DNA of 64,000 bases from a virus (IMGVR_UViG_3300038312_000193), one strand, 5' to 3'. Positions 16,178-60,258 are shown, numbered from the stretch's first letter. Numbers and translations are program-made. Notes: generated from the sequence alone by a model not told the origin.

Positions 16178-16270
16178 AACTTCCTCCTTTCGTTTGTATA
16201 TTTATTTTATACTTTTAATAAAAATTTGTCAAGCATTTAATTTCATGACCAAAAACTAGGTTGGTTTTAA

Positions 16271-16822
16271 CTATGATAAACCAGCAAACTTGCCATAATA
16301 TTTTTGTCTTGCTTCTTCTGCAATCCTTCCAGCTTCATTAACATCATCAAAATAACCTATTATTATTCGTTTATTATTTCGACACAATGACACTTGCCAT
16401 TTTTCTCTTTGAGAATTCCAAAATACATTTCTATAACCACTTTTATTATTAGAATTTTTGCTTTTACGATTCTGATTATTATTAGGATGTAATGTTACTC
16501 TTAAATTAGATTCTCTATTATTTAATCCATTGTGATCTTTATGGTCTACTCGTATATGTTTCTCAGTAGCATCTGTTAAAAATCTATGTATAGAGATTGT
16601 TTTTGGATGTTCTCCAGATGGATACACCATTGTACGAACATAATATGTTTGTGATCCCTTATCCCATTGAGCATTCCATCTATATCCTGCTTTAATAAGT
16701 TTATCTAATTTTTCTAAATCTACAAAACATTCAAGAATTTTATTCTTATGCTCAATAAATAATACAATATCTTCACCACGTATTTCATAATTATTAAATC
16801 CTTTAAAATATCCCTTTGCTAT
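16271..16822 (-). CDS. HNH-AP2 endonuclease, probable ATA start
   Basis: VDHKDHNGLNNRESNLR, NNKSGYRNV. Frame stays open upstream of 16630 to an ATA at 16822 just after AAGGTGA. Confidence 0.75.
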   Translation of the reverse strand: MAKGYFKGFNNYEIRGEDIVLFIEHKNKILECFVDLEKLDKLIKAGYRWNAQWDKGSQTYYVRTMVYPSGEHPKTISIHRFLTDATEKHIRVDHKDHNGLNNRESNLRVTLHPNNNQNRKSKNSNNKSGYRNVFWNSQREKWQVSLCRNNKRIIIGYFDDVNEAGRIAEEARQKYYGKFAGLS

Positions 16823-16878
16823 ATTATCACCTTCTTTATATTTTTATTTTAATAACATTACCAAAGACGCATTTGGAT

Positions 16879-17112
16879 TTATTTTATAACATTCATATTT
16901 TTATCAATATCATATTTTTTACTTTCTTCATAAGTAATTTCAAATTCAACCACTTCGGCATTTAAATATTTCTCACAATCTTCAAACATGTTTAAATGAC
17001 CATTAACATTACCAAAAGTTGACCATGCATGACCGTTTTTACTCCAACCACCATACATACCTTTATTAGCATATAAACCTGTTTCTTTATCTCTTATTTT
17101 ATAAACCTTCAA
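16879..17112 (-). CDS. Hypothetical phage protein
   Basis: ORF with GGAGG RBS, flanked by 18-bp sites. Confidence 0.65.
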   Translation of the reverse strand: MKVYKIRDKETGLYANKGMYGGWSKNGHAWSTFGNVNGHLNMFEDCEKYLNAEVVEFEITYEESKKYDIDKNMNVIK

Positions 17113-17198
17113 TAAATTTCACCTCCTATAAATACCAATATAACGACTTTTCTGTTTTAACCAAATCAGACTTTTATAATGATTTTGTTCCTATTTGT

Positions 17199-17882
17199 TT
17201 ATATTATATTTTTGATTCTAGGTGTTATAATTTCATCTATGTATTTTGATTTAGTTTCGGTTGCCAGCCAATTACGATTATTTTTAATACAACTTTCAAT
17301 TTCACTACCTGAACCAGCAAAAGGAATATAAACTAAATCATTTTCATTTGAAGATTGAGTTATTAGGATATCAGCAATTTCTACACTTTTTTCAGATGGA
17401 TGTTTCCTTTTTTTACCTTTAGGGAATTTTACATCTATTAAATTAGATATGGAATTATTATTTACTTGTTTTGCCTTACCAATAGAATTTCTAAATAATA
17501 ATACAAATTCTATTTGTTTCATATACCAACCGAATATTACTTTATTACCTTTATTCAGAACTATTACATTCATCAACTTTAAACCACATTTATCTGCATT
17601 ATACAAAATATCTAATAAATTTTTATCATTACTATAAACATATAAATGAGCAGACGGTTTTAATATTCTTTTAAATTCACTCATATATTGATCAGCTTGA
17701 AGATAATCAAATAATTTTCTTTCTTCTTTATTTCTATAAAATATCCCACTTCTCATTTTCCCTGCTCCTCCACCAGCTTCTATTTTATATGGTGGGTCAG
17801 CGATTATTAAATCAATATATTCATTAGGCAATTGTTTCATAAATTCATTGCAATCTTCATTGTATATTTTATTAATTTCTAT
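17199..17882 (-). CDS. N6-A/N4-C DNA methyltransferase (beta class), probable ATA start
   Basis: ADPPY, HPSEKS, PFAGSGS. An in-frame upstream extension IEINKIYNEDCNEF begins with ATA after GAAAGGAG. Confidence 0.85.
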   Translation of the reverse strand: MEINKIYNEDCNEFMKQLPNEYIDLIIADPPYKIEAGGGAGKMRSGIFYRNKEERKLFDYLQADQYMSEFKRILKPSAHLYVYSNDKNLLDILYNADKCGLKLMNVIVLNKGNKVIFGWYMKQIEFVLLFRNSIGKAKQVNNNSISNLIDVKFPKGKKRKHPSEKSVEIADILITQSSNENDLVYIPFAGSGSEIESCIKNNRNWLATETKSKYIDEIITPRIKNII

Positions 17883-17974
17883 GTTTTTGACTCTCCTTTC
17901 TATAACTTTTAATCAAACAAAAATTTGGTGTTGTTTTTGTAATTTATAAATGCCATTATTTCGGACTTTGTATT

Positions 17975-18739
17975 TTATACTATTAATCTGTTTTTTGCAA
18001 TTTCACAATATTTTTCTTCCAATTCGATGCCAATACATTTTCTTTTTAAATTCCTTGATGCTAATAATGTTGTACCAGAACCGCAAGTGAAATCTAAAAT
18101 AAGTTCGTTTTCTTTTGTGTATGTATTAATTAAATATTCTATAAGAGGCACTGGTTTTTGTGTTGGATGTAAACCACTTTCAGAATTAAATTCTAAAATA
18201 TTATTCGGATAATTTGTATATTTTTGAGTATAATCATTTTGTCTGCTTGGACGTTCTTCAATTGTAGTCCCTTTTCTTGATTTGCCTTTATTGCTTTTTT
18301 GTTTATTAATTTCTATTAACCCTTGAGGATAATATTTCATCATGTTTTTACTGCCATTTGCTATGTTTCCAAAACTAAAACACATTACATCTTCATATTT
18401 TTTCATTGGACTATTTTTAGCATTTAGAAAATTACCTACTTTTGATTTAATCCATTTATAATCATATTTATAAAGTTTTTCATTGCTCAATCTTAAATGA
18501 CTACTAAATGGTTCTGTGCCAAATAAACAAATACATCCATCGTCTACTATTAAATTTTCAAGTCTATCCCATATTTCTTTATAATTAATTACACTATCCC
18601 ATTTACATGCTGTAGTCCCATAAGGTGGATCAGTGATTATTGCATCAAATTTTATACCCTTCTCAATAATCTTATCCATCACTTCTAAACAATCACCTTG
18701 AAATAGTCTTATGTATTCATCTTTATAGTATAATTGCAT
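17975..18739 (-). CDS. N6-A/N4-C DNA methyltransferase (beta class)
   Basis: GDCLE, TDPPYG, HPTQKP, LDFTCGSGTT. Confidence 0.92.
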   Translation of the reverse strand: MQLYYKDEYIRLFQGDCLEVMDKIIEKGIKFDAIITDPPYGTTACKWDSVINYKEIWDRLENLIVDDGCICLFGTEPFSSHLRLSNEKLYKYDYKWIKSKVGNFLNAKNSPMKKYEDVMCFSFGNIANGSKNMMKYYPQGLIEINKQKSNKGKSRKGTTIEERPSRQNDYTQKYTNYPNNILEFNSESGLHPTQKPVPLIEYLINTYTKENELILDFTCGSGTTLLASRNLKRKCIGIELEEKYCEIAKNRLIV

Positions 18740-18767
18740 CTATAATTAATTCAACCCTCCTTTTATA

Positions 18768-19346
18768 TTATATTTTTACATCACTTTCAACTTCATTACC
18801 CCATACGTCCCAACCTACTCTTTTATTTCTAGCAAACAATTCAATGTAAGGTGCATAACTAACTTTCTCTATCATTTCATACATCTCTTTTGGTTTTTCA
18901 GAATGTTCCCCTCTAGGAGCAACAAATACCGTTTTACCTTGTTGCCTTTTACTATTTAAAGTCTTATATGGCAAAACACCTTTTACACCAAACAAACATA
19001 CTTCATCAAGTCCACGGAAATATTGTCCTAATCCTGCATTTTCAAATTTAAAAGTTTTACCTTCTGAATCAAGACATTCTCCTTTTACCCATGTGATTTT
19101 TGTTTTATATGTAAATCCCCATGCTTTCATAACTTGTAAACCATCTTTAAGAAAATTATTTGTAACCCATAAGTATAAGTGACAATTATCATCTGCTAAA
19201 TTATGTATTGGTAAATTTATAATATCCTTTGTTTTCATTAATGGATAATGTCTATCTGCTCCACGTTTAATCTTTCCTCCACCTGATTCCATCCAAGGAG
19301 GATCGGCATATATTGTTTTATATTTATTAATCTTTTTTACCTCCAT
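18768..19346 (-). CDS. MT-A70 family adenine methyltransferase
   Basis: YADPPW, LYLWVTN, WGFTYKT, HSEKP, IELFAR...GWDVWGNE. Confidence 0.92.
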   Translation of the reverse strand: MEVKKINKYKTIYADPPWMESGGGKIKRGADRHYPLMKTKDIINLPIHNLADDNCHLYLWVTNNFLKDGLQVMKAWGFTYKTKITWVKGECLDSEGKTFKFENAGLGQYFRGLDEVCLFGVKGVLPYKTLNSKRQQGKTVFVAPRGEHSEKPKEMYEMIEKVSYAPYIELFARNKRVGWDVWGNEVESDVKI

Positions 19347-19438
19347 TTTTATATTATTGTTTTATTATGACTTGTGACAAAACCGAAGTTTTGTGTTGAT
19401 TTTTGGATTTATAAAGCCCAATATTACGGGATTCTTGT

Positions 19439-20182
19439 TTAAGCAATTTTGTGATTTTTGACTCTTTCTAAAGATAAATTATAATATTCTTCATCTGTTT
19501 CAAATCCTATGTAATTTCTTTTGGTATTTAAACAAGCTATCGCTGTTGTACCAGAACCCATACAATTATCTAAAACTAATTCATTTTCATTTGTGTATGT
19601 ATTAATTAAGTATTCAAATAATTCCACTGGTTTTTGAGTAGGATGAACTTTTTCTTTCTGATTTGCGTTACCGATTTCAATAATGCTTGTTGGATAGTAT
19701 TCATCATATATTTCTTTTTCTTTAGGTTGATTTATAGTGCCATAACAATCACTTAAAGAATAAAGTTTTCCACCTTTACTTCTCTGTTTTCCTTTTCTCA
19801 TAATTGGATTATATGTAGGCATTTTTTTATAAAAACATAATATTAATTCATGTCTTCTTAAAGGTTGTCTTTTGGCATTTAAAAAACCTGTTGATAATTT
19901 TTTATCCCATATTAAATCATATTTAAATAATTTATTATTACTATTAATTAATTTAGTTGCAAATGGTTGTGTAGCAGTAAAACACATCATCCCATTATCT
20001 TTTATAATTCTTTCATACTGCTCCCATAATGGTTCAAATGGAATTATCTCATCCCATTTATTTCTTGCCGTAACCCCATACGGCAAATCACATAAGATCA
20101 TATCAATACTTTTATCTGGTATTAAACACATACCATTTTCTTTAATACAATCTTCATTATAAATAGTATTCAATTCAATCAA
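19439..20182 (-). CDS. N6-A/N4-C DNA methyltransferase (beta class)
   Basis: CDLPYG, HPTQKP, LDNCMGSGTT. Confidence 0.92.
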   Translation of the reverse strand: MIELNTIYNEDCIKENGMCLIPDKSIDMILCDLPYGVTARNKWDEIIPFEPLWEQYERIIKDNGMMCFTATQPFATKLINSNNKLFKYDLIWDKKLSTGFLNAKRQPLRRHELILCFYKKMPTYNPIMRKGKQRSKGGKLYSLSDCYGTINQPKEKEIYDEYYPTSIIEIGNANQKEKVHPTQKPVELFEYLINTYTNENELVLDNCMGSGTTAIACLNTKRNYIGFETDEEYYNLSLERVKNHKIA

Positions 20183-20491
20183 TTTATGTATTATTATCCT
20201 CCTTATTTTTATTTTATGCTTTTAATAGTTTTTTTTCAGAAAATCATGCCTCACAAACGCCCAAATTTCGGACTTCATTTCTGCACCAAATAGAGAATTT
20301 ATCAACACTCCTCTTTAAATGCCTCGTAACACCCTTTTGTATATTCAATTATTTCCATGTCTTCACAATCATTACAATTAAGACTACAAGAGTATTGCCC
20401 ATCTGTGATTTCTTCTACGTCAGCACACCAACTGCCGTATGTATTACACCATTTAGCCATATTTACCTCCAATCATTATGAAACATAGTTT

Positions 20492-20908: not shown

Positions 20909-21033
20909 ATTTATAACCTTCCTTTTAAATCGTGATCAACCTCAAATTTTATTCAAATATTTATCTATATATTGTGCCATCAATTGTTTTATGTCAGAAT
21001 ATATAGTATACTAATCTTTTTATTTTGAGTAAT

Positions 21034-23418: not shown

Positions 23419-23599
23419 ATTTTCCCCCCTCCCTGCTTTTAAATATTATTAAGATCAAGCTCTCCTCTATTAGTATAATATCATATGTATTATTTGTCAA
23501 TATTTATTTTTTGCTTTTAATGAAAGTTTTTTATAAAATTCATAGTTCAAGAATCCCAATATTTAGGCATCCATTTCATGATAGAACTAGAATTTTATG

Positions 23600-26500: not shown

Positions 26501-28538
26501 TCCAAAAATGCAAATTATATTGAAAGAAATTCCCATTGCAATTATAATGATTTCTCATAGTATCAAAAAAGATATCTAATTCTTCTTCATTCCAATCTAT
26601 AGGCAATCTAAAATTATTAATATCTTTTGGTCTTTTTATATTAAGAATATTAAACATTTCAATAATTTCATTTTTGTGTGAATAATATTCTGTTAATACC
26701 CTTAACCATAATGGAGTTTCTTCTGTTGACCAAGATTCTTCATAATCTTTTTCATAAACAACCGCAAGGAATTTAGTGAAATTATCTTTATTAATATTGT
26801 TTGAGATTAAATCAATGAATAGAGAATTTTTACACTTTTCATTCGATAATTTAACTTCCTCTTTTAATTGCCTTGCTTCATTTCGTAATTTTTGATTTTC
26901 TTCTCTTAGTTGAATATTGTTGTTTTTAATATCATCAATTTCGCTTTGAACTGATGCTAAAAGGATAGTTTTACATTTCTCTCTATACTCTATAAACAAT
27001 TCATCTAAAGGCGTTGGCTCATAAATCTGCTCATCATAATATTCATTATATCCATACATTTTTTACTTCCTCCTATATTTATTTTTATAACATTATAAAA
27101 GCTGGATTTGGTATTAATCTTGCTCACCACAAAATCCTTTAACCAACCACTTAAAAGTAGCATACAATTCTTCTAATGATTCAAATTCACTATTAATATT
27201 TAATCCCCTGGTAAACACATCATATATATCTACTTGCTTATTAAGACTATATCCCTGGTTAATCATCCACCCTGTTAAATTATCAAATAAGTGTTTAATA
27301 TATGTCTTCTCTCCATCATGCCCATTTGTAAATTCATACACTGTTTCAATACTTATGGAATACATTTTACTTTCTTTATTATAAGTAATATCAATGTCAT
27401 TCATTGTATATAGATTTGCTTCACTATAAGACGGATCGTTTGCTGATTTGATTCCCCAAATAAATTTATATGTATCTTCGTATTTTTCATATTCTTTAGA
27501 ATATTGATGTTTATTCCATAGTGATTTTAATTTACGAAACATATTATTCTCCTTTATTATTATATTATACATTTAATGTAAAATCAAACATTTATAACGA
27601 TTTTATATACTAATTAGTGTAAGATTTACTTCCATATCATTTTGATAAATATCAATATTTCTTTGTAAAGATTCTTGTAACTGTTTTATTTCATTTTTTA
27701 TTCTTATATCTTTTTCTTTGAATGTTTTATCACCAATCTTTATATTTCCTAATTTTCTTAGTAGTTGAATAATTCATACTTCCTCCTTCTTAATTTGTAG
27801 CATCTGTATTTTTTGGTTTCCTACTTTTCTTTTTCTCTTTACTACTCTCATATACCGATTTCAATAATTGCCCTACATATGTATTAGTACCCTCATAAAA
27901 TATAATCACTTCGGCCTTTTCTTGTTTGTTTAAAGTTTCAAATTCTACAATAAGATGTTGTATTGCTTGCTCTACATTGTTACATATAAGTAGAATGTCA
28001 TCAGAATTCAAACCGATTATATTTGATTTACGTTTCAATATGTATACTCCTTTCTATATATTTATATTATAATTTTAATACAATGTTTGAATAAAATCAA
28101 TAGTTGGTCATATTATTTATTGCAGTTTTAATATTCCTGTTTGCATTTCTTCTAACATAATTATGTATTTATATTTTTCATCTATAATTTCACTTATATT
28201 GCATTCTTTATCTGAATCTTTATGAAAACTAATACCATCTAAATTGCAGGTTTTATAACTTTCTCGATAATCATGACTAATACAATATCCGCATTTGCTT
28301 TTAACACATTTCATTATCAACCCTCCTTTATTTTTACATATTGATTCTTTTATATTAATATTATTGACTCTTCTTTAGATATTGTTAATTTTCCATCTTT
28401 ATCAATATGAATATAACAATCTTCTTTAGGTTCAAGATATATATCACCATTTGCATAATGAATAATAGTAATATTTTCAGCTTCAATAGTTAATTTATTT
28501 TCATCTATTGTAAACATCGAATTATTAATCACAATCAA
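23600..28538 (-). CDS. Array of about 13 hypothetical genes (including the 348-aa 26013-27059), almost all separated by 18-bp sites
   Basis: ORF track plus AGGAG RBSs. No recognised domains. Confidence 0.6.
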
Positions 28539-28550
28539 ACCTCCATTTCA

Positions 28551-28925
28551 TTAAGATGCTTTTATCAAACTTTTATGATAATCTTTTAAAAATTGTGGCG
28601 TTTGCATTGTTGTATATCCGACCATTTCTTTTATGATTTTTCTTTTAGATTTAAACGTCATAAGAATATTATTATGTTTTTTATGATACCCCTTACGACC
28701 TAGTATACAATTACATCTATAACAACAAGTTGCTAAATTATATTCGTTATTATTTCCTCCTTTACTTTTAGGAATTATATGATCTAATGTCGCAATATTA
28801 TTAGGCATAGGAGTATTTTTATTGGGATAATATACTATTACCTGTTCACCACAATACAAACAAGTAAAATTATCTCTCTCATATAATTTTATATGATTCA
28901 AATTATCACCTACTTTCATTAGCAA
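28551..28925 (-). CDS. HNH endonuclease
   Basis: RDNFTCLYCG...TLDHIIPKSKGG...NLATCCYRCN. Confidence 0.85.
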   Translation of the reverse strand: MLMKVGDNLNHIKLYERDNFTCLYCGEQVIVYYPNKNTPMPNNIATLDHIIPKSKGGNNNEYNLATCCYRCNCILGRKGYHKKHNNILMTFKSKRKIIKEMVGYTTMQTPQFLKDYHKSLIKAS

Positions 28926-28944
28926 ATGATGTTTTGGTTATGAT

Positions 28945-29133: not shown

Positions 29134-29146
29134 AATGCCTCCAAAT

Positions 29147-30512: not shown

Positions 30513-30992
30513 ATATAAAAATCAAATGCTAATTCTATATTAACATAAATTATCTATATCTTAATATCAATAATACCACACTCAGCATCATTGTCAACAT
30601 ATTTATTTTATATTTTTAATTAAAAATGAGGATAGAACTTCTTCTTATCCTCTATCTTTATGCCAATGGATTACAACTTCTCTACATTCATCAAAAGTAT
30701 TAAACATTAATCCATATTTTAATGAATTATAAGAAACGTATAAATCACAATTATCTTTTATACATTGCTCTAATCCACAACGTTTTTTAAAACAAGTAAT
30801 ATAAAAATGGTAATTACCATTTGGTATGTGAAAAATAAAACTTACCAACCCTGTTTCTCTATTTTTATGTTGCCAAGTTTCATATACTTTTCTTTTTTTA
30901 ATTTTTTGAAATTTCACTTTGTCATTCTCCACTCTTATTAAATATGTATTAGGCATGTGGAATTACTGAATGACTATGTGAAATTTTAAATA

Positions 30993-31413: not shown

Positions 31414-31803
31414 TTACTGCCATTTATTATTAATATACTTTTGCCCGTAATTATTTTGAGTAAAACATAATAATTCTCTCTCAGTAGAAAAAATTAATGA
31501 ATTTTTATTTATCCATTCATTATAATTATTTTCAATTTTACATAATCTCCATTGTTCGGGATATTTTAATATACTCACTAGATTTTCTTGTCCTTTTTCT
31601 ATTTGTTTAAGAAGGCGGTAATTTGTTTTTTCATATAATAAACGATTTAATGTATCGAAACTTGTTTCTTTTATTAATTTTTCTAATATCTCTATTTGTG
31701 AATTAAGATAAGAGATATGTTTGAAATTATATCCCTTATCTATTAATCCATCTTTAAGATATGTTATTATTTTATATCTTCTCCACATTGTTACTAGAAT
31801 CAT
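31414..31803 (-). CDS. Hypothetical protein
   Basis: ORF overlapping the stop of the upstream gene. Confidence 0.55.
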   Translation of the reverse strand: MILVTMWRRYKIITYLKDGLIDKGYNFKHISYLNSQIEILEKLIKETSFDTLNRLLYEKTNYRLLKQIEKGQENLVSILKYPEQWRLCKIENNYNEWINKNSLIFSTERELLCFTQNNYGQKYINNKWQ

Positions 31804-32825
31804 ACACGCAACAACTCCTTATACTGATAAAACATATCTTTTATTACGTACCAGTAAGAAGATTCTTTATTGCTTGTATTTTCTTTAACACCATAGTTAT
31901 ATCGGACACAAACATCATCAAAATCTCTATCGGTTATTTCACCTTTTTCTTTATAAATATCAAAACACATTTGTAACATCCCCGAAAAATAGATGCTGGA
32001 GTATGTTAAATACCTATTATCACATGCTTCTTGAATCTTTCTCATCCTAGAATTTAATAAACTAGGTGTAAATATTTCAAACTTATTTTTCCCTGGTTTT
32101 CTAAGAACATATCTATTTATTAATTCATCTGTTTTTGACTTCCCAGTTTTATTGATAATACTCTTTCTAGGATCGGGTATTTTAGGGTTATTAGTCATTT
32201 CACCATTATTTTCTATATAATACTCTTGTTCATATGCCTCTCTAATTACATCAAAAATAAAATTAGGAACATTATCTAATATCCTAGACACACCATCATT
32301 TTGTCTTAAAATAAGAATATTTTCTTTTTCATTAATATCATCAATTGTTAAATTAATCACTTCTTCCATTGTACCATCGTCTATAGTTCTACCTCTTACG
32401 CCTATATAAGGCAACCATAAAATTAGTTGGTCTTGATAATTAAATAAGGTGTTTTGGTACTGAATCATCTTTTCTCTAGGGATATATTTGCTTAACAATG
32501 CTTGACGATGAACAAAATCATTAATGTCTATATATCTTGCTCTATTTTCCATGTGAGATACAATTTTTTTACTCACGCAAAAATCAATATAATTCACCAG
32601 AATAGATTTATTCTTACCTGCGCCACGTTTTGAAGTGTTACGCAAAGTGGCAAACATTTCATTTAACTCAGGAATACTAAGATTATAAACTTGTTTACCA
32701 ACTTGATTCTCGTAATTATCAAATTCACGCAACACAAAAGCATCAGAATCAGCAGTTCCAGTTGGTTTACTTTGTAGATATTCTTGTTTAATTTCGTTAT
32801 TAACAGAAAATTCAATATTTGCCAT
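31800..32825 (-). CDS. Tyrosine-recombinase-fold protein, probably a catalytically dead repressor (SPbeta YopR/MrpR-like)
   Basis: DQLILWLPYIGVRG...EEVINLTIDDI is integrase box I-like. HxxR is replaced by YSSIYFSG. Lies next to a DGQHR gene. Confidence 0.65.
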   Translation of the reverse strand: MANIEFSVNNEIKQEYLQSKPTGTADSDAFVLREFDNYENQVGKQVYNLSIPELNEMFATLRNTSKRGAGKNKSILVNYIDFCVSKKIVSHMENRARYIDINDFVHRQALLSKYIPREKMIQYQNTLFNYQDQLILWLPYIGVRGRTIDDGTMEEVINLTIDDINEKENILILRQNDGVSRILDNVPNFIFDVIREAYEQEYYIENNGEMTNNPKIPDPRKSIINKTGKSKTDELINRYVLRKPGKNKFEIFTPSLLNSRMRKIQEACDNRYLTYSSIYFSGMLQMCFDIYKEKGEITDRDFDDVCVRYNYGVKENTSNKESSYWYVIKDMFYQYKELLRV

Positions 32826-32828: not shown

Positions 32829-34148
32829 TTACACCTCCTTAAAGAGTTTGTAGATTTTGTTTTTAGTGGATTTACCAATCTTATTGTCTTTGATTATCCC
32901 TATTTCACGCCACATAGGATTGTCTGTACTAAAATTGATAAGCTTAATTTTTTCTTTAAGAATTTCTTTCCAATCCTTATTATCCTTTAGTATCGCTGAC
33001 AATGCAATATATCCATAGAACATATTCATGTTATTGATATAAGAAATTTTCTTTATCTCATAAGGGTTAGAAATAAACTCTTCTTGATAATAACCCATAA
33101 GATAGTTTGTGAATTCAGTTATCCATTTTGCTATATCATCACGATTCATTGCTGAGTCTAGGTCTGTATAGTTGTCTTTGATTGCTTCAGCAAGGATTGG
33201 TTTAGTTGTTAAGGCACGATCTGATTTTACGAATGCATCAGTATCTTTAGCAACATTGGATAAGTCTCCACGACTATCCATTATTTTATCTAATACAAGA
33301 TTTTCAGGTTTAGAATAGTCTTTAGTAGTTATTACTTCAGTTTTAATTTTTGTCTGCTTGTTGATCTGCACCATTGCAGAATGACTTTCAATTTCTGATA
33401 GATTAGTAATATCAATAGGCCAAGTAAAATCTATATCAGGATTTTTTGACATTACTAAGGCTGAAGCAGACTTGCGATGCTGACCGTCAAAAAGATTCAA
33501 CACCGTTCCTTCTCTCAGAGTTAACATTCTAGTCTTAGGATTATAGATAGGTTTATTTTCATCTTTTACAATGTTAATTTTAATATGATCTGGATAATAT
33601 GTTCCAGCAAGCATATTTTCCGCAATCTCTTCAACCTTTTTAGGGTCTTCATTTATCCTAGTTGATTTCTTTGTTACTTTCAGCCCACGCTGTGCGTTAG
33701 GGTTCCAAAGTAATACATTATATAATTCATTAAATTGCTGTATAGTAAGTTTAGTCTGCCACTGTTTACCAGGAATAATCTCTTGTACATCTTTTAAATT
33801 ATATGGGAAAATTTCATCTGATTCTTTTTCTTCAGAATAATTTTCCCACTGGCTGATTTCAACTGGAGTAAAGTAATTTTGATAATCATTTAATACATTC
33901 ATATTTTTTTCTTTTAATGCTTTGTTAAGAGCAAGGGTAAAGATAAAGAGTAATTGAATATCCTCTTCTGAATCTGTTAAGACATCTAAATCAAGGTTCT
34001 CAGAAAAAAGCCAAGCAGCTCTTAACGATGATAAGTTGCGATTTTTAAACTCATCCATCACGAACTGTTTGACATCATTCATATACCCTACTTCACGCAG
34101 GATGCCCCTAAGTTTATTTTTTAATTGCTGTTCTTTATCTTTTAACAT
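32829..34148 (-). CDS. DGQHR/DndB-like ParB-fold protein (SPbeta YopQ-like)
   Basis: WNPNAQRG and LFDGQHRK motifs. Confidence 0.75.
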   Translation of the reverse strand: MLKDKEQQLKNKLRGILREVGYMNDVKQFVMDEFKNRNLSSLRAAWLFSENLDLDVLTDSEEDIQLLFIFTLALNKALKEKNMNVLNDYQNYFTPVEISQWENYSEEKESDEIFPYNLKDVQEIIPGKQWQTKLTIQQFNELYNVLLWNPNAQRGLKVTKKSTRINEDPKKVEEIAENMLAGTYYPDHIKINIVKDENKPIYNPKTRMLTLREGTVLNLFDGQHRKSASALVMSKNPDIDFTWPIDITNLSEIESHSAMVQINKQTKIKTEVITTKDYSKPENLVLDKIMDSRGDLSNVAKDTDAFVKSDRALTTKPILAEAIKDNYTDLDSAMNRDDIAKWITEFTNYLMGYYQEEFISNPYEIKKISYINNMNMFYGYIALSAILKDNKDWKEILKEKIKLINFSTDNPMWREIGIIKDNKIGKSTKNKIYKLFKEV

Positions 34149-36338: not shown

Positions 36339-36443
36339 ATTTCATCTCCACATTCATGAATAAAAAGTTTAGACATTTTAATTCCTCCTTAATATTTTAT
36401 ATTATAGTAAACCATTATTATATATTTGTCAACATTTATTTTA

Positions 36444-37067: not shown

Positions 37068-37453
37068 TGTATTGTGCTACCTCCATTTATCTAATATTTG
37101 TTAAATCAAGAGATATTATTTCTCCTGTATTCTTATCAACAAATATTATTGTATTTGTTCTTACCTCCATATGTATATTATTATTTTTTGCATCTCTGAT
37201 TAACTTCTGTAATTTGTCACTATAGTAAGATACATTTTGTTGTTTCATTATGATTTCACCTCTTACATAAAAGTGTTCAAAAAGATTATTTGGTTATTAT
37301 TTAATCCACAACCATTCTTTATTTTATAACTTCCATGCACAAAGAATATTTAATTCTTTACTTAGAAATTCATTAATTTCTTTTTCTGTGTAAAAATTTT
37401 TATAATAAAGTTCTTTATTTTTAGAAAACCTAACCGTAATCATTTATAACCTC

Positions 37454-39160: not shown

Positions 39161-41336
39161 AAATAATCACTCCATTTTAATTATTTTATTCTTTTTATCG
39201 ACTATTTATCTCACCTCCTTGTTTGAAATATTTGAATGAATCCTCCATTTGGATTTAAATTGTATAAAAATTTCCATATCCATGTTCTTCCCTAACTCTA
39301 TTACCATTTTCATCTAGTCTATACCAATACCAAAAATTACTTAAACCATGATTCCCCCAAAATTGACCATTAATTATTTCTATCTTATATATTTCTCCAA
39401 TTTTATAATGTTCACTATTATGAAAAGGTATAAATAATACTATTTGACCATTATTAGGTTTATTTATTTTATTTGGTTCAGTATTAAATTCTTCCATAAA
39501 ATCTTTTGCCCATTGTTGAACCGCCATAATCTATAACCTCCTGTTAAAACAAAATCAAAGTTTTGTGTTATATTCTTTTAATTGATATAGAAATTCCTCA
39601 TCATTACCACTAACAGATAGCATTTTCTTTAATTCTTGAATTGTTCCTCCATTGTTAATAAAGTATTCTAATTGTCGCACTATCACATCATTAAACAACT
39701 TAATATTCCCCCTTTCATTATAAACTCTTCGTTTTATTCCATTATATGTTTTCTAATTCCATTTCAATATCTTTCATTAAACAATAACCATCACAATCTG
39801 CTTCATCGTAATATACTGTTTCAGATAATAAGTTAAGTACATAATGAGAATCTTCTTGTTTTTGTAATAATTCCAAGCAAGCCTTTAATAATGTAATTTT
39901 TCTATCTTCCATAACTATTTACCCCTTCCTATTATATTGATTTAAATCTACAGTTTTATGCAGACTTCTCTTTCAATTGTTCTAACAGCTCTATTGTACT
40001 ATCAATTTCTTCTTTCTTAATCACATTCCCTGCTGCAAACTTATGTAATTTACTTGTTATTATTTTAATTTGATGCCAATAATCTTTGGTTTTTTAGGTA
40101 GAACTTCGCCATATTTAATGCTTCTTCAGGTGTATTTCCTTGACTACTACAAATTATTCCATCATTAACCTATACATCACAAATCCAACCTACTTCATTA
40201 TTAAAATAAATTTTATAAGTTTTATGTTTCATGCTCTTACCCCTCTCTGTTATTATATTTTTATTTTAATGCAATATGTGTTAATTTGTCAATGCTTAAC
40301 TTAATCTAACTTACTATCTTTATTGCCGGATTTCTACCTGTTATAGCAATTACTCCTTTTTCTGTAATAATGGTTATAATATGTATTTTGTTATTCTGAA
40401 TGTCTGCTACTATCGTGTATGACAAGGTTCGGTCTGTTATGTAAACTTTTCTGTTTTTAATGCTGTTTAGATTATTTAATTTGTTAATAGTTTGCCTTAT
40501 CATCTGTTCTGTTATTTGACGTTGTTTTGTTCTCTCCTTCCAAATAAAACTCGCATTTTATAGATATTTTTTATCGGTTTTCTTATACCAGCCCAATACC
40601 GAATCAGGTTTGATAACATAGCATTTCTCTTTATCACCATCATCCTGAATCCATATAATCATATTTTCAGAAGCTCTTTTTAATGTTTCAAATGCCTTTT
40701 CTATTGCCATATCCATGTTAACCTCTCCTTTTTTTAGATAAATCTCTTATTTGGTTTTATTTCTTCAGTATAGCCATTATTTTCTTTTGTGCCATACCTT
40801 TGAATTCTGCCTTAACTTCATCTATTACCTCTTCAAATGCTTCGTTTACCATATTTTCAATCACGTTTGGATCAAACATGTAAAAATCATACTGCTCCAA
40901 GTCGGTTTGAAATTGTTCTTTAATAATTTCTTTGAATGCTTGCCTTAACTCGTCCTTATCTTCCGATGTGAATAAGATACCTATATTATCCATATATAAC
41001 TTCCTTTCTGTTGTGCTAAAATAACCATTTCATGTTGATTTTGAATTTTAACAATGCCTGTATATCGGCATTCATTTTTATAAAAAACATTTATTTGATA
41101 ACAATATCTCTTGCTTGAAATATTTCTATTGCATCATTAACCGTAAAGTCCTTTATATATTCTTTCATATCTTCTATATCTTCAACTAATTCTTCTTCGG
41201 TTTGATACCATTTGTAACCTCTTTCCATCATCCCTTCCATGTTTTCAAATGAATAAAGTAATAGAAATTTATTATCCATTATATCCCTCCTTAATTTAAC
41301 AAAACCCCACATTTATCATATTATTATGTTAATTAT

Positions 41337-46584: not shown

Positions 46585-47994
46585 TATTGATACTCCCTTC
46601 TTTGCTTGTAAATTTATTATATCATAAAATTAATAAGTCCCAATATTACGGCATTTCACCTGCGACCAAACCCAGGATTTATAACGATTCTGTTATGCTA
46701 TTTTCTCAATTAACCAAACGCCTGAATGAAACCATGTTTCTTTTGCTATACCTAAATCAAAACAATCTTTAATCATTCTGGCAACATCTAAATCAAAATC
46801 GTTATCCTCTAACCAATTTCCTGCTGATCCCTCAAATACTATTTTATTATCGTTGGTTACTCTTATGTTCATCTGTTATACTCCTTTCAAATTTTATTTA
46901 ATTACCTTTTCGATTATATTTCTCCACTCTTCCACTCTTGATTGATAGGCAATTTTTTCAGCATCTTTTTTATTTTCAAATACATCAATAATCTTTAGTA
47001 CTTCGTTTTTAACTAATCCAATCACAATATAAACTTTTTTATTTTTCATTTTTCAACCTCCTGTTATTATAAAATGATTGATTTATCATGATTTTATTAA
47101 ATATATGCCTCCCACCAAACCATCTCAAAATTAAATCCTCCAATTATAACCCCACATCTATCACAATAAAATTTATTACCTTCTTCACGCAAATAATCTC
47201 TTTGTGTCCAATACGCATCCCAACAATGTTCATTTTCTATGAGATAATCTATCAATTCTTGTTTGGTTTGAAAATGTTTCCACATTATTTATCACTCCCA
47301 TTTAAATTTATGCCATACACATCTTTAACCCATCTTTTAATTGTATGACTATAATTTATAAGTCCTTCCCAATTACAAACTTCATCAAATACCTGGTCTG
47401 GTGATAATTGATTAAATATATTATCTTTACTCTTATCTGTTGCCTCTAAATCTTCTCGTTGTCTTAACTTTTTAAGAATATACTCAGGATATGCCATAAT
47501 ATATCTAACTCCTTTTCATATTTTATTGGCTTAATGCCCATTCCCATTGACAAGTAGGAGAAATTTTACCATAACCATAAGGATGATCTATTAATATTCT
47601 ACTATCAATTATTGTTTTTATATACCTTAAACCTTGGCAGTATTCTGATATTTCTATAATAGGATTATATTCTATGTTATTACGATAAAAAGTACAGTTA
47701 TGAACATTAATACCCTGGATGTAACTTTGTACTATTTCATCTTCTTTAGTAACTTCACCTATACCAATATGATTAAATTGTCCACAAGCTGAAGTAATTA
47801 TATATTTGTTACCATTGTCCTTTTCAAAAATAAAATATGCTTTCTTGTTTATGTACTGGTTATCTAACAACCAATATAAGTATTTTTTTAAATTAATCAT
47901 TTAAACCACTCCTTTATAATTTATTATAGTTATATTATAAAGGAGTGTATTCATATTGTCAACATTATTTTCTTATTGTATTTATATTTTTATT

Positions 47995-48912: not shown

Positions 48913-51900
48913 TTATTTAAAATTAACTCCTTGTTTTTTTAATATAGAAAAGATATTTTTTAACTGCCATTTTAAATTAATTCCTAATTCAATGGTCATT
49001 GTGTTATCATCCTCATCTGCAATGCTCATAAAATCCTGATATTCTGGTTGTAGTTTTAATGCTATTACATTTAGTTGTATTTGTAATGCTACATTCTTTT
49101 CATGTTCAAAAATCTTTAATACCTTTTTTGCTTTTTCTATTTCTTGTTTCAATTCATTATTTTCTTTTTTAAGTATTTCTAATTCTGTCATATTAGTCAT
49201 CTCCTTTAAAAATCGTTTATTAACTATATATATTATAGTAGCAATATATATAGATTGTCAATCACATATTTATATTATGTTTATAATTTTTATTTAATTC
49301 CTTAATAACCAGGTTTTAATATTAATAGAATACATTGTTTGAACCAAACGATTCTTCTATGCTGTTATAGGTAATTCCCATTGATAAGTATTTTCAGTCC
49401 ATTTATAACCTAATTCTATTAAGAATATATGAAAAAGTTCTTCTACCTTATCCCATAATTTTTCTTCGTTATCGGTAGTTATTTCTGCACATTTTGTGTA
49501 AATATAATTATATTGTTCATTACTTAAATTTACTTTTTCATAATCTTCGCTATTTTTGGTAGATTCTAATATTTCCGTTGCTCTTTTATTCATTATTAAC
49601 CCCACCTTTCTGTTATACATCAAATACCTATTTGGTTTACTTCCAACTGGCTACACATCCTAAATGAGATATTAAATAATCTTCGTTGGCAAATCTAAGT
49701 GTATAGCTTTTAAAGGATGTATTTTTAAATGATATTTCATTAGAATTTTTTAAATAAGTTAATTTGAAACTTGCGAAACTTCTTGATTTATAATTTCTTT
49801 TTGCAATAATGCTGTTATCTACTATTTCAAAATTATGTGATTTTACATGTTCTTTTAAGTATTCATACATTTCATTTATATTTTTCATTTTATCCTTCCT
49901 TTCAACTCATGACCAACTCTGAATTTTATACTAACACAACATTTATACACTTAGGGTAAATTTTATCTTCTCCAATGACAAGTAATGAGTACCATTTATT
50001 ATTTTTAAACCACATGCCAATATATAAATCCTTTAAAGTTTCAAGTTTCCAGTCTGTTATTATTTTTATGTTATTATTATCTGTCATTTGCAATTCATAC
50101 TCATTAAATTGTTCTTGATATTTATCGTATTTTTCACTAATCATTATATACAGTTCTTTTGCTTTGGTTTTTGATGTAAAAGGTATTTCAAAAACTACTT
50201 TTCCATCAAAGTAATGTAATCCTTGCAGTATATACGATCCTCTTTTAGAAGAATCTTTTATTATGTTAAACATACTTATATTTTTGTTCTGATAGTTAAA
50301 ACCTTTTACCAAACAATTAACTTTATATCCTGCATGATAAAATGGTTTTGTTCCTGCATATATACTTTTACCTTTAATAATATTAATTACTTCTCTAGAT
50401 ATTTCCCTTAATTCCTTTTCAGTAAAAAAATTTAAACCTTCCATTTTTAACACTCCTTCAATCTCTTTTATTCTTACTTATGCTCCATTTTCCAAAACTT
50501 AAATCATGATAAAAAAGTTATTTGGTTTTGTTATATTTAGTATATCATATCCGCAACATGAAAGCAAGTACTAATTTTATATTTTATAAATAATTATGCT
50601 ACTTTTTTGGTTTTATTGGTCTGTTTGTAATCTGCTATTATATTTACATCCTGGTTCTTTATCGGATCATGCCATAAATATTTTACTGTTAAGGCACATA
50701 CACCAATTAATATCCATCCTGCTATGGTATATAAGGTTAATATTGTTGCTGTGTTTATGTAATCCTGCGTTGTAATTATCATCCCTATCATTGTATTTAT
50801 ACCTCCTTATATAAATCCTTCCCAGGTTTTAAACCATTCTGAATAATCATAAAGTAAACCACTTTTGTTATAGCAATTTTTTATTACTATTCTGTTCCAA
50901 TTTACTTCTCCACTTTTAAATAAGTCTATAGATACCATACAATCAAGAATACATTGACGGTCTTTATAGATTAATAAGGATTGAGGTTTTAATGTGTAAT
51001 AATCTGCTACAAGTATGGCCTGTTGTAATTCTTCGGGCAGATCATCCCAATTCTCTGTAATAGTTTTTAATTGTTCTGTGGGATGTGATAAGTTAATTAT
51101 TGTTATTGACATTTGTTATACCTCCATCCGTTTTAATCTTTTTTTAATCAGATTTAATTCATCTTGAAAGAATTTAATCTGGTTAGGGTTATTTTCTTCT
51201 TGATGATATTTAATTGCTCCCTCAGTATAACCTTTACGATATAATAATTCCTCTTTGCTCAAACTTTTAACTGTGTTATATGCATATGAATTTTTATATT
51301 CAATTTTTTCATAACCTATATCATTCATTCGATATACCTCCAATATTTTTATATTAAGGTTTTTGTGCAGAACCTTTAAAACTGCTCTGTTATTGCTTTA
51401 AAACAACCTTGTATATAATCCTGTTACTGAGGTAAAAATGTCTTCTAACATATCGGCATAAACATCTTTGTATTCCTTAATGATTACAATCTCTTCATCA
51501 TAAATTTTAATTCCCATTGCTTTATACTCTGGTGTTTTACATTCAGGTTTTAAAGTCTTTTTAATTCTGCTGAATGTCAAGTTATAGAGATCAAGGCCAT
51601 TAAGTTGTATTTTAAGATACTGAGCCTTTGAATTATTCCTGGTTAGTTTGATGACAAGATATACATACCCTAAATCATCATAACCGTAATACTGGAATTT
51701 ACTGCCTGTCATTATTAAAAACTTACTACCTCCAATTTGTTGAATTATTGTTCTGTAATCACCTATTCTAATTTCATTCTGTTCTGTTATTGCCATTATG
51801 TAAAACCTCCTTATAATCCCCATTTTGCAATTTCAATTTGTGTATGTTTCCGTAGTAAGTAATTAGTACAATCTGTTATTAAACTTTTGAGCCATTTTAT

Positions 51901-57900: not shown

Positions 57901-60258
57901 GTTACCTCCTATTTATGTAATATAATTTTATTTTGTTGTTCCCAACCTTTTAACCAGTTATTTGTTATTTGTTCTTTTAATTCGGGAAATGTACTCCATA
58001 ACCATTGACAACATGTGTCAAGTGCTGGTTGCCGATATCCTGCCTTACACCTGTAATTTTTACCACAAATAAAAGCAATATTTTCTGCTTGATTTTTAGT
58101 GGTTTTTAAAAGTGATTGATAATTCATTATATTACCTCCTATTATAATTTTACTGCTATAGTTCCATTACGAACCCAACAATCCGAATTGCCTATAACTG
58201 TTACTATTGTTATAGTTCTGTATGTTATATTGCAGACTACGCTAAAATTATTTTGTTTGTCCATGATGAAAATATCACGGTTAGAACCACTGTAATCTGT
58301 TATGGTTTTTTGGCCTAATGATAGGATTGATCCTGTTACCTGATACAAGTCAATTTGTCTTTCTTGTAGTCGCTGTTCTGCGTGATTTGTTAAGCGAATA
58401 GAGTAGGTTTTGTTTTGGATTGTAAATGACAATATCATTATTCCTGGTTTCCTCCTTCTGCTACTGTTATGGGAATTATAGGATTTTTGGGTAATGGTAC
58501 TATTATTATACATTGTTTCACCTCCTTGTATGTTAATAAATCCTTTATTGAGTGCTATATATTTTAATTATATTACTGTTATACTGTTATGCTTTTATTA
58601 GCACTCTAAAAAGATTTAATTATATTGTTATTGTGTATTATGCCTCTACTAATTCAAAATGATGTCCACTATATCCTTTATCTAAAATACTAACAGAATA
58701 TAATTTGCCAGTTTTACATGGTGGCAGGTTATAATTTGGATATTGTACATGATCATGTGGTGGAAAATAAGCAAAATTGTCTTTTGTGGCCTTCAACATT
58801 ATTTTTTTACCGTTGTTGTTCTCATGTTGGTATACTACCTTGGAATTTTCAACGTGTGCAGTTTCAAATACTTCATGAGGTTTGTTATTCATGCCTAGAT
58901 AAATTATTTTTTTCATTATTTGATCCTCCTATACTTCTATTATTTTACTTCTCTGTTATAGTTTTTAGAGGTTATGTTAATACCCTCTATAGAGCCATCA
59001 TTTTATATTACCATTTTATGATGACTCTAACAAGGTACTAATTATGCTATTGCTTGTCTTTGTTCTCTTTCATCTCTGTTAACCATTTCGCTACCATATA
59101 AATTGCGAATTTCTTCTATAGTTAATTCTTTTTTGGATTTTTTGCGGAAAGTTCCAGGTTTCCAGTACCAAGCTAATTTTTTGCCTGAGAAGGTGAAACC
59201 TAACTCTTTTAATATGTCTTTATGTTGTTTGGTTTCGCCTGTTATCCAAAGCCATGTGCCACAAAGTTCTATTGTTATTCCTTCAAGGTTTATTATTTTG
59301 TCTATGATTTCTCTGTATCCATCAAAAGGATCGAAATTTTGTGTATACTCTTTTTTGGTTTCATGGTTGTAACCTGTAAAAGTTTTGTTCTTGAATGCTT
59401 CATACTGTAGGTTAATCTGCTTCATTGTTTCGGTGGTATCATTGTCATGGTTATGGTCTGGATGAAATTTTTGTGCAAGTTCTCTGTAACGTTTTTTAAT
59501 TTCCTCTATTGAGTTACAATCGGAAAAATAGTTTAACATTTTTATCAATCCTTCCTTATGTTTATTTTATTGGTTTAATATCCTCTATAGAATACATTAA
59601 CTGTTATATGCTAATGTATTCTAACAAGATACTAAATAAAATATAGTTCGTTATTAACTTCCAAACTAATTGCATCCTGGTTTGATATTTCTTTTAATTC
59701 TTCTCCTATTTCTATAGCTGCTTCGATGCTATTTTCTAGGTTATTACTATAACTGAAAACTACTACTATTTTTTCCTTTATCAATTCTCCTGCTACACTT
59801 TTCCAATAGCCTAACGCCTGTGTTGATGTTGCTCCTCCGTTAACTTCACTAAATTTACTAGCTGTTAAGTCTACCATTTTTTGAATTAAATCAGTTGGTA
59901 GTTCCTGGTTGTTTTTGTCTCTGGTTGGTACATATAAACTTACTTTGTGAGATAGTTTAAAAAGGTTTTTTAAGGTTTTTTTGTTTTCGTTATTCATTTT
60001 GTTATAATCTCCTTTTTGTTTTTTATTTAAGGGAATAACCCTTATTTTTTGAATCAAATTTCGGTTTGGTGTTGAGTGGTTTTATAATCCTGCTAATTTT
60101 AATCTGGTAAACTCTTTTGCTGCCTCGGTATAAGATGTATACTTTTTGTCGTTGAATTTGTTACGGACAATGTATTCACCTGCTTCATTAATTCCTAATT
60201 GTAAGATACCTTTAAAATTAAGTTCACGATTTTTTAATACTTCAATTTTCTCTCTCAT
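48913..60258 (-). CDS. Putative early / host-takeover operon region: about 30 short, mostly hypothetical genes
   Basis: Dense co-oriented short ORFs with strong GGAGG RBSs, several strong promoters and intergenic hairpins. Confidence 0.55.
52656..53693 (-). CDS. DUF262 (GmrS/ParB-like) domain protein
   Basis: VQR..QW...SLLIHSIL, IIDGLQRLT, IFYRLNNG. Confidence 0.85.
   Translation of the reverse strand: MFGMQRKSLSWSVKQVSTMINKGTIVFDNPVQRPAGQWKNEDKSLLIHSILEMFVPDIYAIQEKQESGNTYSIIDGLQRLTIIHSFINDEWQLTELPQIKLESTGEKFNISGKKFSELPEEVQDEIKSFMLAFKLIELDDNDDEESIVNDIFYRLNNGKVVSKEHLALVSAKKNVREFVKRMITEHKLFTDVAHFTPGAIKKSDKQMTILQSIILVSGLDFCTFAAKDVEKFFVTNTITDEVLNRTEELFTVIADSFNNKYNKFCTKINITSMVGFLNTQKSKHESTNFITWYSKNSKPGDAYKNNCGAGSTKKERVNGRLNGLQELFEEWQGKQEQVQGEQEIA
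55054..55452 (-). CDS. SprT-like zinc metallopeptidase
   Basis: LGICW...LEEVICHELAH...HCKKH. Confidence 0.7.
   Translation of the reverse strand: MITEQEYFDQTVQKTLTQIECTMDINITIMDHSTLKGKSKESLGICWRNQFDIYHITIDEFFVHECYTYFILDSITSTWELNGQTLEEVICHELAHIEQWRHCKKHRQITNRLLLMVKLPDKYYQYISNKSA
58142..58513 (-). CDS. DUF4258-like small protein
   Basis: LTNHAEQRLQERQI...ITIVTVI. Confidence 0.5.
   Translation of the reverse strand: MYNNSTITQKSYNSHNSSRRRKPGIMILSFTIQNKTYSIRLTNHAEQRLQERQIDLYQVTGSILSLGQKTITDYSGSNRDIFIMDKQNNFSVVCNITYRTITIVTVIGNSDCWVRNGTIAVKL
59042..59548 (-). CDS. J-domain (DnaJ-like) protein
   Basis: EEIKKRYRELAQKFHPDH...MKQINLQYE. Confidence 0.85.
   Translation of the reverse strand: MIKMLNYFSDCNSIEEIKKRYRELAQKFHPDHNHDNDTTETMKQINLQYEAFKNKTFTGYNHETKKEYTQNFDPFDGYREIIDKIINLEGITIELCGTWLWITGETKQHKDILKELGFTFSGKKLAWYWKPGTFRKKSKKELTIEEIRNLYGSEMVNRDEREQRQAIA
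59632..59997 (-). CDS. DUF3574-like small protein
   Basis: GGAT...GYWKS...KEKIVVV...NQDAISLEVN. Start moved to MNNENK after AAGGAG. Confidence 0.5.
   Translation of the reverse strand: MNNENKKTLKNLFKLSHKVSLYVPTRDKNNQELPTDLIQKMVDLTASKFSEVNGGATSTQALGYWKSVAGELIKEKIVVVFSYSNNLENSIEAAIEIGEELKEISNQDAISLEVNNELYFI

Follow-up and report, generated by a model that had tools for sequence, protein, structure and literature searches.

The window analysed in the present study is a stretch of 64,000 nucleotides from the virus IMGVR_UViG_3300038312_000193, and carries, between 16.2 and 60.1 kb, approximately 45 copies of the dyad AYMAAA-N6-TTTKRT in short intergenic gaps. These dyad sites are probably multi-copy operator or roadblock boxes of a repressor of the MrpR/YopR/SroF type, a homologue of which is encoded in the window, and the counterpart of the SPbeta repeated element (SPBRE) and the SroF box of phage phi3T. 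The original prediction regarded the sites as the borders of an integron-like array of gene cassettes shuffled by a recombinase, and named operators of a YopR/MrpR-like repressor as the alternative. With the homologue present and precedents in SPbeta and phi3T, this alternative proved to be the best-supported reading. The sites exist as a symmetric motif, are specific to the phage and conserved in its relatives, and follow a defined distribution, and the repressor homologue is present in the same DNA; the identity of the binder and its effect on transcription are what we infer.

The described 18-mer was present at all 46 coordinates listed originally, and 37 of the 46 sites showed at most one mismatch to AYMAAA-N6-TTTKRT. 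With a 30-bp matrix, 41 of the 46 scored at least 12 bits, the five weak ones being 27578, 29891, 40544, 45405, and 54671, and good intergenic copies absent from the earlier list were found at 24507, 28534, 30521, and 45191. The sites are given below by their 18-bp coordinates, without strand, and with bit scores from the 30-bp matrix.

16248-16265, dyad site, 21.9 bits; 15 nt upstream of the -35 of the TTGACA-17-TAAAAT promoter of the ligase/replication genes
16860-16877, dyad site, 20.9 bits
17160-17177, dyad site, 19.2 bits; exact consensus
17912-17929, dyad site, 23.4 bits; exact consensus
19377-19394, dyad site, 26.9 bits; right arm overlaps the TTGTCA -35 of a promoter-like site (19380-19353)
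20285-20302, dyad site, 13.9 bits
20478-20495, dyad site, 17.4 bits
20935-20952, dyad site, 17.4 bits
21534-21551, dyad site, 19.3 bits
23581-23598, dyad site, 14.4 bits
24007-24024, dyad site, 16.4 bits
24260-24277, dyad site, 13.8 bits
24507-24524, dyad site added to the earlier list, 19.5 bits
24934-24951, dyad site, 19.9 bits
25179-25196, weak dyad site (25180 in the earlier list), 12.7 bits
25516-25533, dyad site, 18.9 bits
25743-25760, dyad site, 20.1 bits
25999-26016, dyad site, 18.0 bits
27095-27112, dyad site, 22.3 bits
28091-28108, dyad site, 19.0 bits; contains the -35 of a TTGATT-17-TAAAAT promoter-like site
28534-28551, dyad site added to the earlier list, 20.7 bits; spacer is the ribosome-binding site TGGAGG
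28921-28938, dyad site, 19.6 bits
29669-29686, dyad site, 13.9 bits
30128-30145, dyad site, 18.6 bits
30521-30538, dyad site added to the earlier list, 13.4 bits; 31 nt downstream of the strong early promoter
37277-37294, dyad site, 12.3 bits
39236-39253, dyad site, 15.1 bits
39549-39566, dyad site, 18.8 bits; exact consensus
39720-39737, weak dyad site, 12.2 bits
39942-39959, weak dyad site, 12.0 bits
40738-40755, dyad site, 15.3 bits
41016-41033, dyad site, 16.3 bits
41299-41316, dyad site, 13.4 bits
45191-45208, weak dyad site added to the earlier list, 12.5 bits
45431-45448, dyad site, 21.0 bits
46665-46682, dyad site, 19.0 bits
47069-47086, dyad site, 15.6 bits
49343-49360, dyad site, 17.2 bits
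49619-49636, dyad site, 12.3 bits; exact consensus
49912-49929, dyad site, 17.5 bits
50509-50526, dyad site, 23.4 bits
54319-54336, dyad site, 16.8 bits
55016-55033, dyad site, 16.2 bits
56499-56516, dyad site, 17.5 bits
60053-60070, dyad site, 20.3 bits

The exact degenerate consensus occurred 13 times against an expectation of 1.5, and ACCAAA-N6-TTTGGT with at most two mismatches 21 times against 5.9. The 30-bp matrix gave 51 matches of at least 12 bits, compared to 1.5 in locally shuffled DNA, in a test that is circular. In cross-validation, a matrix trained on 16-31 kb alone detected 12 sites in 37-60 kb, where locally shuffled DNA gave 0.45, and no site in 1-16.2 kb, which confirms the earlier statement that the first 16 kb hold no clear copy. 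When the window matrix was applied to independent relatives whose repressors are 80%, 69%, 67%, and 51% identical to that of the window, 16-20 sites per 21 kb were found, compared to fewer than one in shuffles. The enrichment over shuffled DNA, a matrix check of which had been suggested with the original prediction, was thus upheld both by cross-validation and in the independent relatives.

Intergenic DNA amounts to 22.6%, while 46 of the 51 matrix matches were intergenic. Between 16.2 and 30.6 kb, 15 of the 17 gaps of 40-99 nt contained a site, and between 37.3 and 60.1 kb about half of the gaps did so; the replication block and the immunity module contained almost no sites. The described arrangement was also recovered, in that most units consist of a site, a ribosome-binding site, a single open reading frame (ORF), and a further site. 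With gene borders taken from our own rough gene calls, 30 of the 46 sites lie at -4 to +10 nt from the upstream stop codon, and 28 of the 46 lie 15-36 nt ahead of the next start codon. These positions relative to stop and start codons follow from packing, because the gaps are only about 45 nt long. In the 3.1-Mb assembly that holds one of the relatives (L002), 25 of the 70 exact matches were on the 149-kb phage contig, which makes up about 5% of the assembly, and 19 of these 25 were within 46 kb around the repressor gene; a control pattern gave 54 matches in this assembly. The density of sites on the phage contig was approximately 11-fold above that in the remaining assembly. Because the exact matches concentrate on the phage contig, the motif is phage-specific and does not mark a host regulon. 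A regulon of a host factor was accordingly ruled out, the remainder of the 3.1-Mb assembly not being enriched.

The conserved region exceeds the 18 bp originally described, and covers approximately 28 bp, T-Y-A-n-n-AYMAAA-N6-TTTKRT-n-n-T-R-A, with a bias in the flanks at positions -4 to -2 (T-Y-A) and 21 to 23 (T-R-A). The frequency matrices of the two half-sites mirror each other (r 0.84-0.87, compared to 0.22 in the direct-repeat control), with symmetric base preferences from -4 to +7 of each half, and the mirroring extends to the degenerate positions 2 (C/T about 50:50), 3 (A/C about 50:50), 7, and -3. The spacer had been described as unconstrained, which is true of its inner positions; its outer positions are biased (Y at 7, R at 12). 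Spacers were distinct in 42 of 43 sites in the window, and 75 distinct spacers were counted among 88 sites when relatives were added. The site is thus a dyad with two arms of about 11-12 bp around four to six unconstrained core bases, and the geometry of tyrosine-recombinase core sites, with inverted arms of about 11 bp around a short spacer, was borne out.

Covariation was absent at the mirrored arm positions 2/17 and 3/16 (permutation p 0.4-0.8); C2 was paired with A17 as often as with G17, and A3 with G16 as often as with T16. Because the arm positions vary independently, base pairing is not selected, and a hairpin in RNA or a cruciform is therefore excluded, while two independently degenerate half-sites for protein fit the pattern. 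A hairpin in RNA or DNA was thus dropped as a candidate. All convincing genes of the window, the base composition of which is AT-rich (27% G+C), are on the minus strand, and since the motif is non-polar despite this one-way transcription, a promoter, terminator, ribosome-binding, or RNA-processing signal is unlikely. The mirrored base frequencies, with the genes all pointing one way, point to a symmetric DNA-binding protein on duplex DNA. The sites do precede ribosome-binding sites by 5-10 nt in polycistronic arrays, as might be expected of a phage-specific promoter, of an operator acting on translation, or of a hairpin in the intercistronic gaps that serves RNase processing or mRNA stability, and processing hairpins between cistrons occur in T7 and SP82. 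However, in addition to the lack of covariation and polarity, a 6-bp A/U-rich stem would lack stability, promoter-like sites in the region were not enriched (113, compared to 126 in shuffles), and no fixed-phase -35/-10 elements were conserved around the sites. The site as a promoter was rejected on the latter grounds and on its non-polarity, and signals acting at the level of RNA or transcription, which are extremely improbable, are effectively excluded.

In the relative L020, whose repressor is 51% identical, the half-site leans to ACCAAT/ATTGGT instead of ACCAAA/TTTGGT, and this change may be a specificity shift accompanying the divergence of the repressor. Near some of the long-leader dyad sites, at a distance of 15-30 nt, GC-containing elements of the form CC(G/T)-AAT-A/T-TTGGG were seen on the minus strand (19416-19425, 20259-20268, 23554-23563, and 46638-46647), which may be small hairpins. 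A second candidate repeat near some sites, AAWWTTGGGM, was discarded, as it was not enriched (5 occurrences, compared to 3.6 expected).

The proposed binder of the sites and its neighbour are encoded between the two arrays of small genes:

31800-32825, minus strand, MrpR/YopR/SroF-type integrase-fold repressor homologue of 341 aa (Pfam MrpR_N_CB 5e-13), proposed binder of the sites
32829-34148, minus strand, YopQ-like DndB/ParB_N-type protein of 439 aa (Pfam DndB 1.5e-9), directly upstream of the repressor gene

In Pfam, the MrpR_N_CB match of the 341-aa protein was above the cut-off and the MrpR_C_cat match below it. Full-length phmmer matches were obtained to PDB 9rd5 (4e-15) and to MrpR/YopR of SPbeta, 8a0a and 8bj6 (about 3e-11), and tblastn showed an identity of about 24% to YopR of the SPbeta and phi3T phages. 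Metagenomes yielded 89 homologues of the repressor with 39-82% identity, one of them from a Clostridium sp. assembly. The gene pair of the YopQ-like protein and the repressor was kept in all relatives fetched; the YopQ domain and its operon position in SPbeta have been described (PMC8612738). Among the 98 ORFs at 16-63 kb, no helix-turn-helix (HTH) families were detected, and the only regulator families were MrpR and the DndB-like neighbour. Because it has an MrpR/YopR homologue, a neighbour in the YopQ position, and metagenomic homologues that include a Clostridium sp. assembly, the element is a distant Clostridium-type relative of the SPbeta-like phages. A repressor-based search of viral contigs and genome contigs gave no close relatives, a search of viral contigs with a 346-aa protein as the query gave none either, and exact look-up of the repressor of the window returned no record.

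Catalytic residues were mapped through a HMMER alignment to Table 3 of the MrpR paper (PMC10516654). In the 341-aa protein the HxxR box is replaced, with S276 at the His and Y279/F280 at the Arg-II position, and these residues are not conserved in the clade. At the Arg-I position the protein has R144, with a conservation of at least 80% in the clade, whereas MrpR of SPbeta has Ser and SroF of phi3T has Asp there. In 49 homologues the motif G-V-R-G-R (protein positions 142-146) is nearly invariant, E154/E155, R181, R260, and Y335 are invariant, and Y324 is conserved. An alignment of the repressor profile with the canonical integrases of phi3T by hhalign was not significant. Judging from these residues, catalysis is likely lost in the repressor homologue.

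SPBRE was predicted in 1999, and in 2023 was identified as the recognition site of MrpR by sequencing after affinity purification of chromatin (ChAP-seq), electrophoretic mobility shift assay (EMSA), and reporter fusions (PMC10516654). MrpR, a repressor of tyrosine-recombinase fold from which catalytic residues have been lost, binds to the multiple copies of SPBRE both in vivo and in vitro, possibly with extra factors needed for its specificity (PMC10516654). SroF of phi3T, a member of the MrpR family, has multiple genomic sites, and its structure on a 26-bp box shows a monomer that reads 24 of the 26 bp (bioRxiv 10.1101/2025.11.27.690993). When phi3T was searched with the published box, allowing up to six mismatches, 23 copies were found, all in one orientation; 19 of the 23 lay between genes of the early region or at the ends of such genes, and several touched the upstream stop codon. 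The window resembles this system in that the homologous repressor gene adjoins a YopQ-like gene, in that an A-tract-rich box of about 26-28 bp occurs in tens of copies, and in that the boxes are found only in the early and accessory arms, in intergenic and promoter regions, often touching the upstream stop. The distribution of the sites in the window is thus the known behaviour of this repressor family, about four-fold denser. The two systems differ in that the repressor of the window is only about 24% identical to those of SPbeta and phi3T and has retained Arg at the Arg-I position, and in that the host lineage of the phage is an AT-rich Clostridium-type metagenomic clade, unlike that of the Bacillus SPbeta phages.

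Multi-copy repressor sites are also known as the stoperators of cluster A mycobacteriophages (L5 gp71 type), which are asymmetric 13-mers oriented in line with transcription and recognised by a monomeric protein with an HTH and a stoperator domain (PMC9283540, PMC6550527). As in the window, a genome holds more than 20 repressor sites, both at promoters and in the short spaces between genes of co-directional operons, and a block to elongation as well as initiation has been proposed. Compared to stoperators, the sites of the window are longer and symmetric, and the protein paired with them has an integrase fold.

A long-leader subset of the sites (16248, 19377, 28091, and 30521) overlaps or adjoins strong promoter-like sequences, the last of these sites being close to the following promoter:

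30570-30597, minus strand, early promoter (TTGACA-16-TATTAT, extended -10) immediately past the immunity genes; conserved in L001, L002, L007, and L020

In gene orientation, the segment 30481-30650 comprises a terminator hairpin after a 90-aa gene, the TTGACA-16-TATTAT promoter, the dyad site, and then another terminator-like hairpin (30504-30481) followed by another promoter-like site; it looks like the main early control region.

On the basis of these comparisons, the following model may be put forward. In a prophage, the repressor would sit on about 45 symmetric boxes, each of about 28 bp, that are distributed over the early and accessory arms. Fewer than half of the boxes overlap or flank sigma-A-type promoters, where initiation would be blocked. 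The majority lie in gaps of 40-100 nt between co-directional small genes, and may form a roadblock or silencing array comparable to the stoperators of L5. Because the half-sites show mirror-image base preferences, each box may be bound by two protomers or one symmetric dimer in the fashion of a recombinase core site, unlike the monomeric SroF of phi3T. The mosaic junctions found at or near boxes would be a by-product and not the work of dedicated cassette machinery; they often map at or next to a box, probably because the box is among the few sequences common to unrelated intergenic regions.

Several points weigh against this assignment. The box sequence of the window is unrelated to that of SPBRE and phi3T, and is two-fold symmetric, whereas the phi3T/SPbeta box is asymmetric, with direct A-tracts in a strand-oriented arrangement, and is read by one monomer. 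The density of sites is about four times that in phi3T. Two lineages only (the window with L007, and L002) have a site at a distance of up to about 30 nt from the conserved early promoter, and L001 and L020 have none there. Furthermore, binding of the repressor to the sites in this clade is only predicted from sequence, and a roadblock at the intercistronic sites would hold by analogy. A different symmetric binder might also be considered, either the YopQ-like DndB/ParB_N-type protein, as a global silencer similar to KorB or ParB, or a small dimeric regulator that has escaped annotation. KorB and ParB act in global silencing on palindromic sites, dyad symmetry is typical of dimers, while the solved SroF is monomeric on an asymmetric box, and the gene of the YopQ-like protein always accompanies that of the repressor; the possible additional specificity factors mentioned for MrpR (PMC10516654) would suit such a protein. 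However, in both SPbeta and phi3T it is the integrase-fold protein itself that reads the box, among the ORFs of the window no HTH or other regulator family was found, and nothing ties YopQ-like proteins to the sites, so that binding by a phage protein other than the MrpR homologue is considered unlikely.

The proposal of an integron-like system was evaluated in natural variants, which were fetched by exact protein look-ups, with a junction defined as the end of alignability of near-identical DNA. Ends of BLAST blocks of lower identity, which were mostly alignment fragmentation inside genes, were excluded, and only about a dozen junction events were obtained. At site 28534 the upstream homology ends in the right arm (position 15/16), and three different downstream genes are joined there; at site 24260 the upstream homology with L014 also ends in the right arm (position 16/17). 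The first mismatch with L007 at site 25516 is at the edge of the spacer and right arm, with the next 40-nt leader still about 80% alike, and homology ends at the same edge in one L001/L020 pair. Elsewhere, the left edge of site 30128 is the end of homology with L010, which resumes at the right edge of site 28534; homology with L002 begins at the first base of site 37277; L007 becomes homologous again about 13 nt upstream of site 24007; and the upstream homology of L024 ends 12 nt before site 28534. At position 12272 of L010, homology resumes 3 nt past a site that is missing from the window. Relative to the site, the junctions thus fall at -13, -12, 0/1, 0-2, 12-17, 17-19, and +21, and about 10 of about 12 intergenic junctions are within approximately 20 nt of a site.

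Other junctions have no dyad site. L023-L027 are 98-99% identical to the window up to 36425 and then split exactly at the -35 hexamer of a promoter (TTGACAAA), beyond which they carry other genes instead of that for TnpB; L023 and L025 diverge a second time after the -10 of the promoter, and four more junctions fall inside genes. The suggested confinement of breakpoints to the 6-bp spacer was thus not seen, as the junctions are spread from -13 to +21 and are also located at a promoter -35 and in genes. Mosaic borders hug the sites without a single crossover point, and other conserved regulatory motifs are hugged likewise. In L024, a comparison of 4918-6197 with 36425-29335 of the window revealed that about 7 kb is missing, a block that takes in TnpB and the genes of the YopQ-like and MrpR-like proteins and reaches about 29.3 kb, and that about 1.3 kb of other small genes stands in its place; L024 may be a repressor-less (virulent) or a rearranged relative.

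In a cassette system of the integron or pdif type, a tyrosine recombinase of the phage would cleave at the arm/spacer edges and move single genes. Candidate enzymes would be another recombinase of the genome, the MrpR-like protein with residual activity, or the only canonical integrase ORF of the window, which falls outside the small-gene arrays:

63833-64000, plus strand, canonical tyrosine-recombinase gene, 5' end only, running past the end of the window (Phage_int_SAM_1 1.7e-5, 25.4 bits), with no link to the sites shown

Canonical tyrosine-recombinase genes are present in phages of this group, and the sites share with lox, dif, and pdif core sites and integron cassettes the inverted arms of about 11 bp around a 6-bp spacer and the single small genes that they bound. 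The breaks at the spacer/right-arm edge at 28534, 24260, 25516, and in the L001/L020 pair are compatible with such cleavage, as is one junction with a break at the edge of the left arm and spacer, and the MrpR clade retains the Arg at the Arg-I position, the Glu, and the C-terminal Tyr. However, partner sites of Cre and Xer share their spacer, and because 42 of the 43 spacers of the window differ, classical two-strand exchange between different sites is ruled out. Integron attC sites are imperfect inverted repeats of 57-141 bp that fold and have paired core sites, whereas the site of the window is 18-28 bp long, with arms that vary independently and do not form an attC-like fold; an IntI-type integrase with an attI and Pc platform was not seen in the window. 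In the adjacent integrase-fold protein the catalytic HxxR box is replaced, and the replacement is not conserved. The junctions are heterogeneous, and some are at the site-free promoter -35 at 36425 or within genes. Neither circles nor deletions from site to site came to light, in an analysis that did not extend to reads. Furthermore, because the spacer of site 28534 is the ribosome-binding site, the apparent crossover there is no more than the stretch that separates this element from the start codon. The pattern of junctions is not that expected of an integron or a lox/dif-type system, and the recombinase-shuffled cassette array of the original prediction was not supported; we regard it as improbable.

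The junctions instead appear as would be expected, by analogy with the promoter early stem-loop (PeSL) elements, of homology-limited or illegitimate recombination at short conserved motifs (PMC2839356). PeSL cassettes of T4-type phages consist of an early promoter and a terminator stem-loop and recombine by homology over longer repeats, and their mini-circles have been demonstrated (PMC2839356, PMC4122927). As in the window, the borders of indels and replacements among close relatives coincide with a regulatory motif that recurs between small accessory genes, whereas the box of the window is a short dyad with no conserved promoter or hairpin. The sites may be regulatory and, at the same time, passive preferred crossover points for homology-driven or illegitimate recombination, which would speed up the shuffling of accessory genes. 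This is compatible with the repressor boxes proposed above and is possible, though not the likelier case. It would agree with the PeSL precedent, with the closeness of most intergenic junctions to a site, and with the position of the only clear site-free intergenic junction at another conserved motif, the promoter -35 (and -10), because of which short conserved motifs appear to delimit the mosaic blocks. However, a site fills most of a short gap, so that junctions at gene borders are near one by packing; conserved motifs make homology seem to reach them; the shared arms comprise only six degenerate bases; and the independent events are too few for statistics. On account of the cluster of junctions compatible with the spacer/right-arm edge, which consists of only three or four events, a small probability is kept for a reading based on a recombinase. 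The dyad boxes might then be living recombinase core sites, bound by a pair of the repressors that bear the Arg-I, Glu, and Tyr residues, with occasional one-strand exchange at the spacer/arm edge by the repressor or a partner integrase and resolution by replication, so that homology of spacers would not be needed. We consider this very improbable; if true, the array of repressor boxes would double as a system for the exchange of gene cassettes, and as an intermediate between recombinase and repressor.

If the assignment to the MrpR-type repressor holds, integrase-fold repressors with genome-wide arrays of boxes extend beyond the Bacillus SPbeta phages into an AT-rich clade, found in metagenomes of fermentations and anaerobic digesters, that would be large, the lowest identity among its 89 homologues being 39%. 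It would also mean that the fold has a second mode of DNA recognition, on a symmetric 11-6-11 box, in addition to the asymmetric box read by the monomer of phi3T. The symmetric box resembles an ancestral recombinase core site, and the two systems form a pair on which the conversion of a recombinase into a repressor may be studied. With its dense placement between cistrons, the array would add a second, independent example of silencing in the manner of stoperators, and the sites may serve as a simple marker of the early and accessory arms and of immunity groups in such phages. The multi-copy box systems of SPbeta and phi3T are already known, and the interest of the present system lies in the core-like symmetry of its box and in the partly kept active-site constellation of its repressor. 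An integron-like system would have been a remarkable find, but is not supported by the evidence.

In the window, replication genes, including those for a DNA polymerase III alpha-like protein and an NAD-dependent ligase, fill 1-16 kb, and the small-gene arrays occupy 16-31 kb and 37-60 kb, with the immunity-type module between the two. The cargo of the small-gene arrays includes five DNA methyltransferases (16879-20182, 38186-39082, and others), three of which are of the N6_N4 and two of the C5 type, with one also matching MT-A70, as well as NADAR, ART-PolyVal, and GmrSD_N proteins, HNH nucleases, and a DnaJ-domain protein. The methyltransferase, NADAR, ART-PolyVal, GmrSD_N, and DnaJ-domain genes are likely counter-defence cargo. 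The gene for TnpB of the IS605 family, with OrfB_IS605 and Cas12f1-like TNB domains, is at 35177-36338 within the immunity region. In addition, approximately 630 bp of the replication block (13102-13740, the 232-aa gene at 13120-13818) resembles genes upstream of the YopQ-like gene in relatives, with 67-69% identity to genes of L004, L005, L007, and L008, sometimes in two copies, and this looks like a paralogous or mobile gene.

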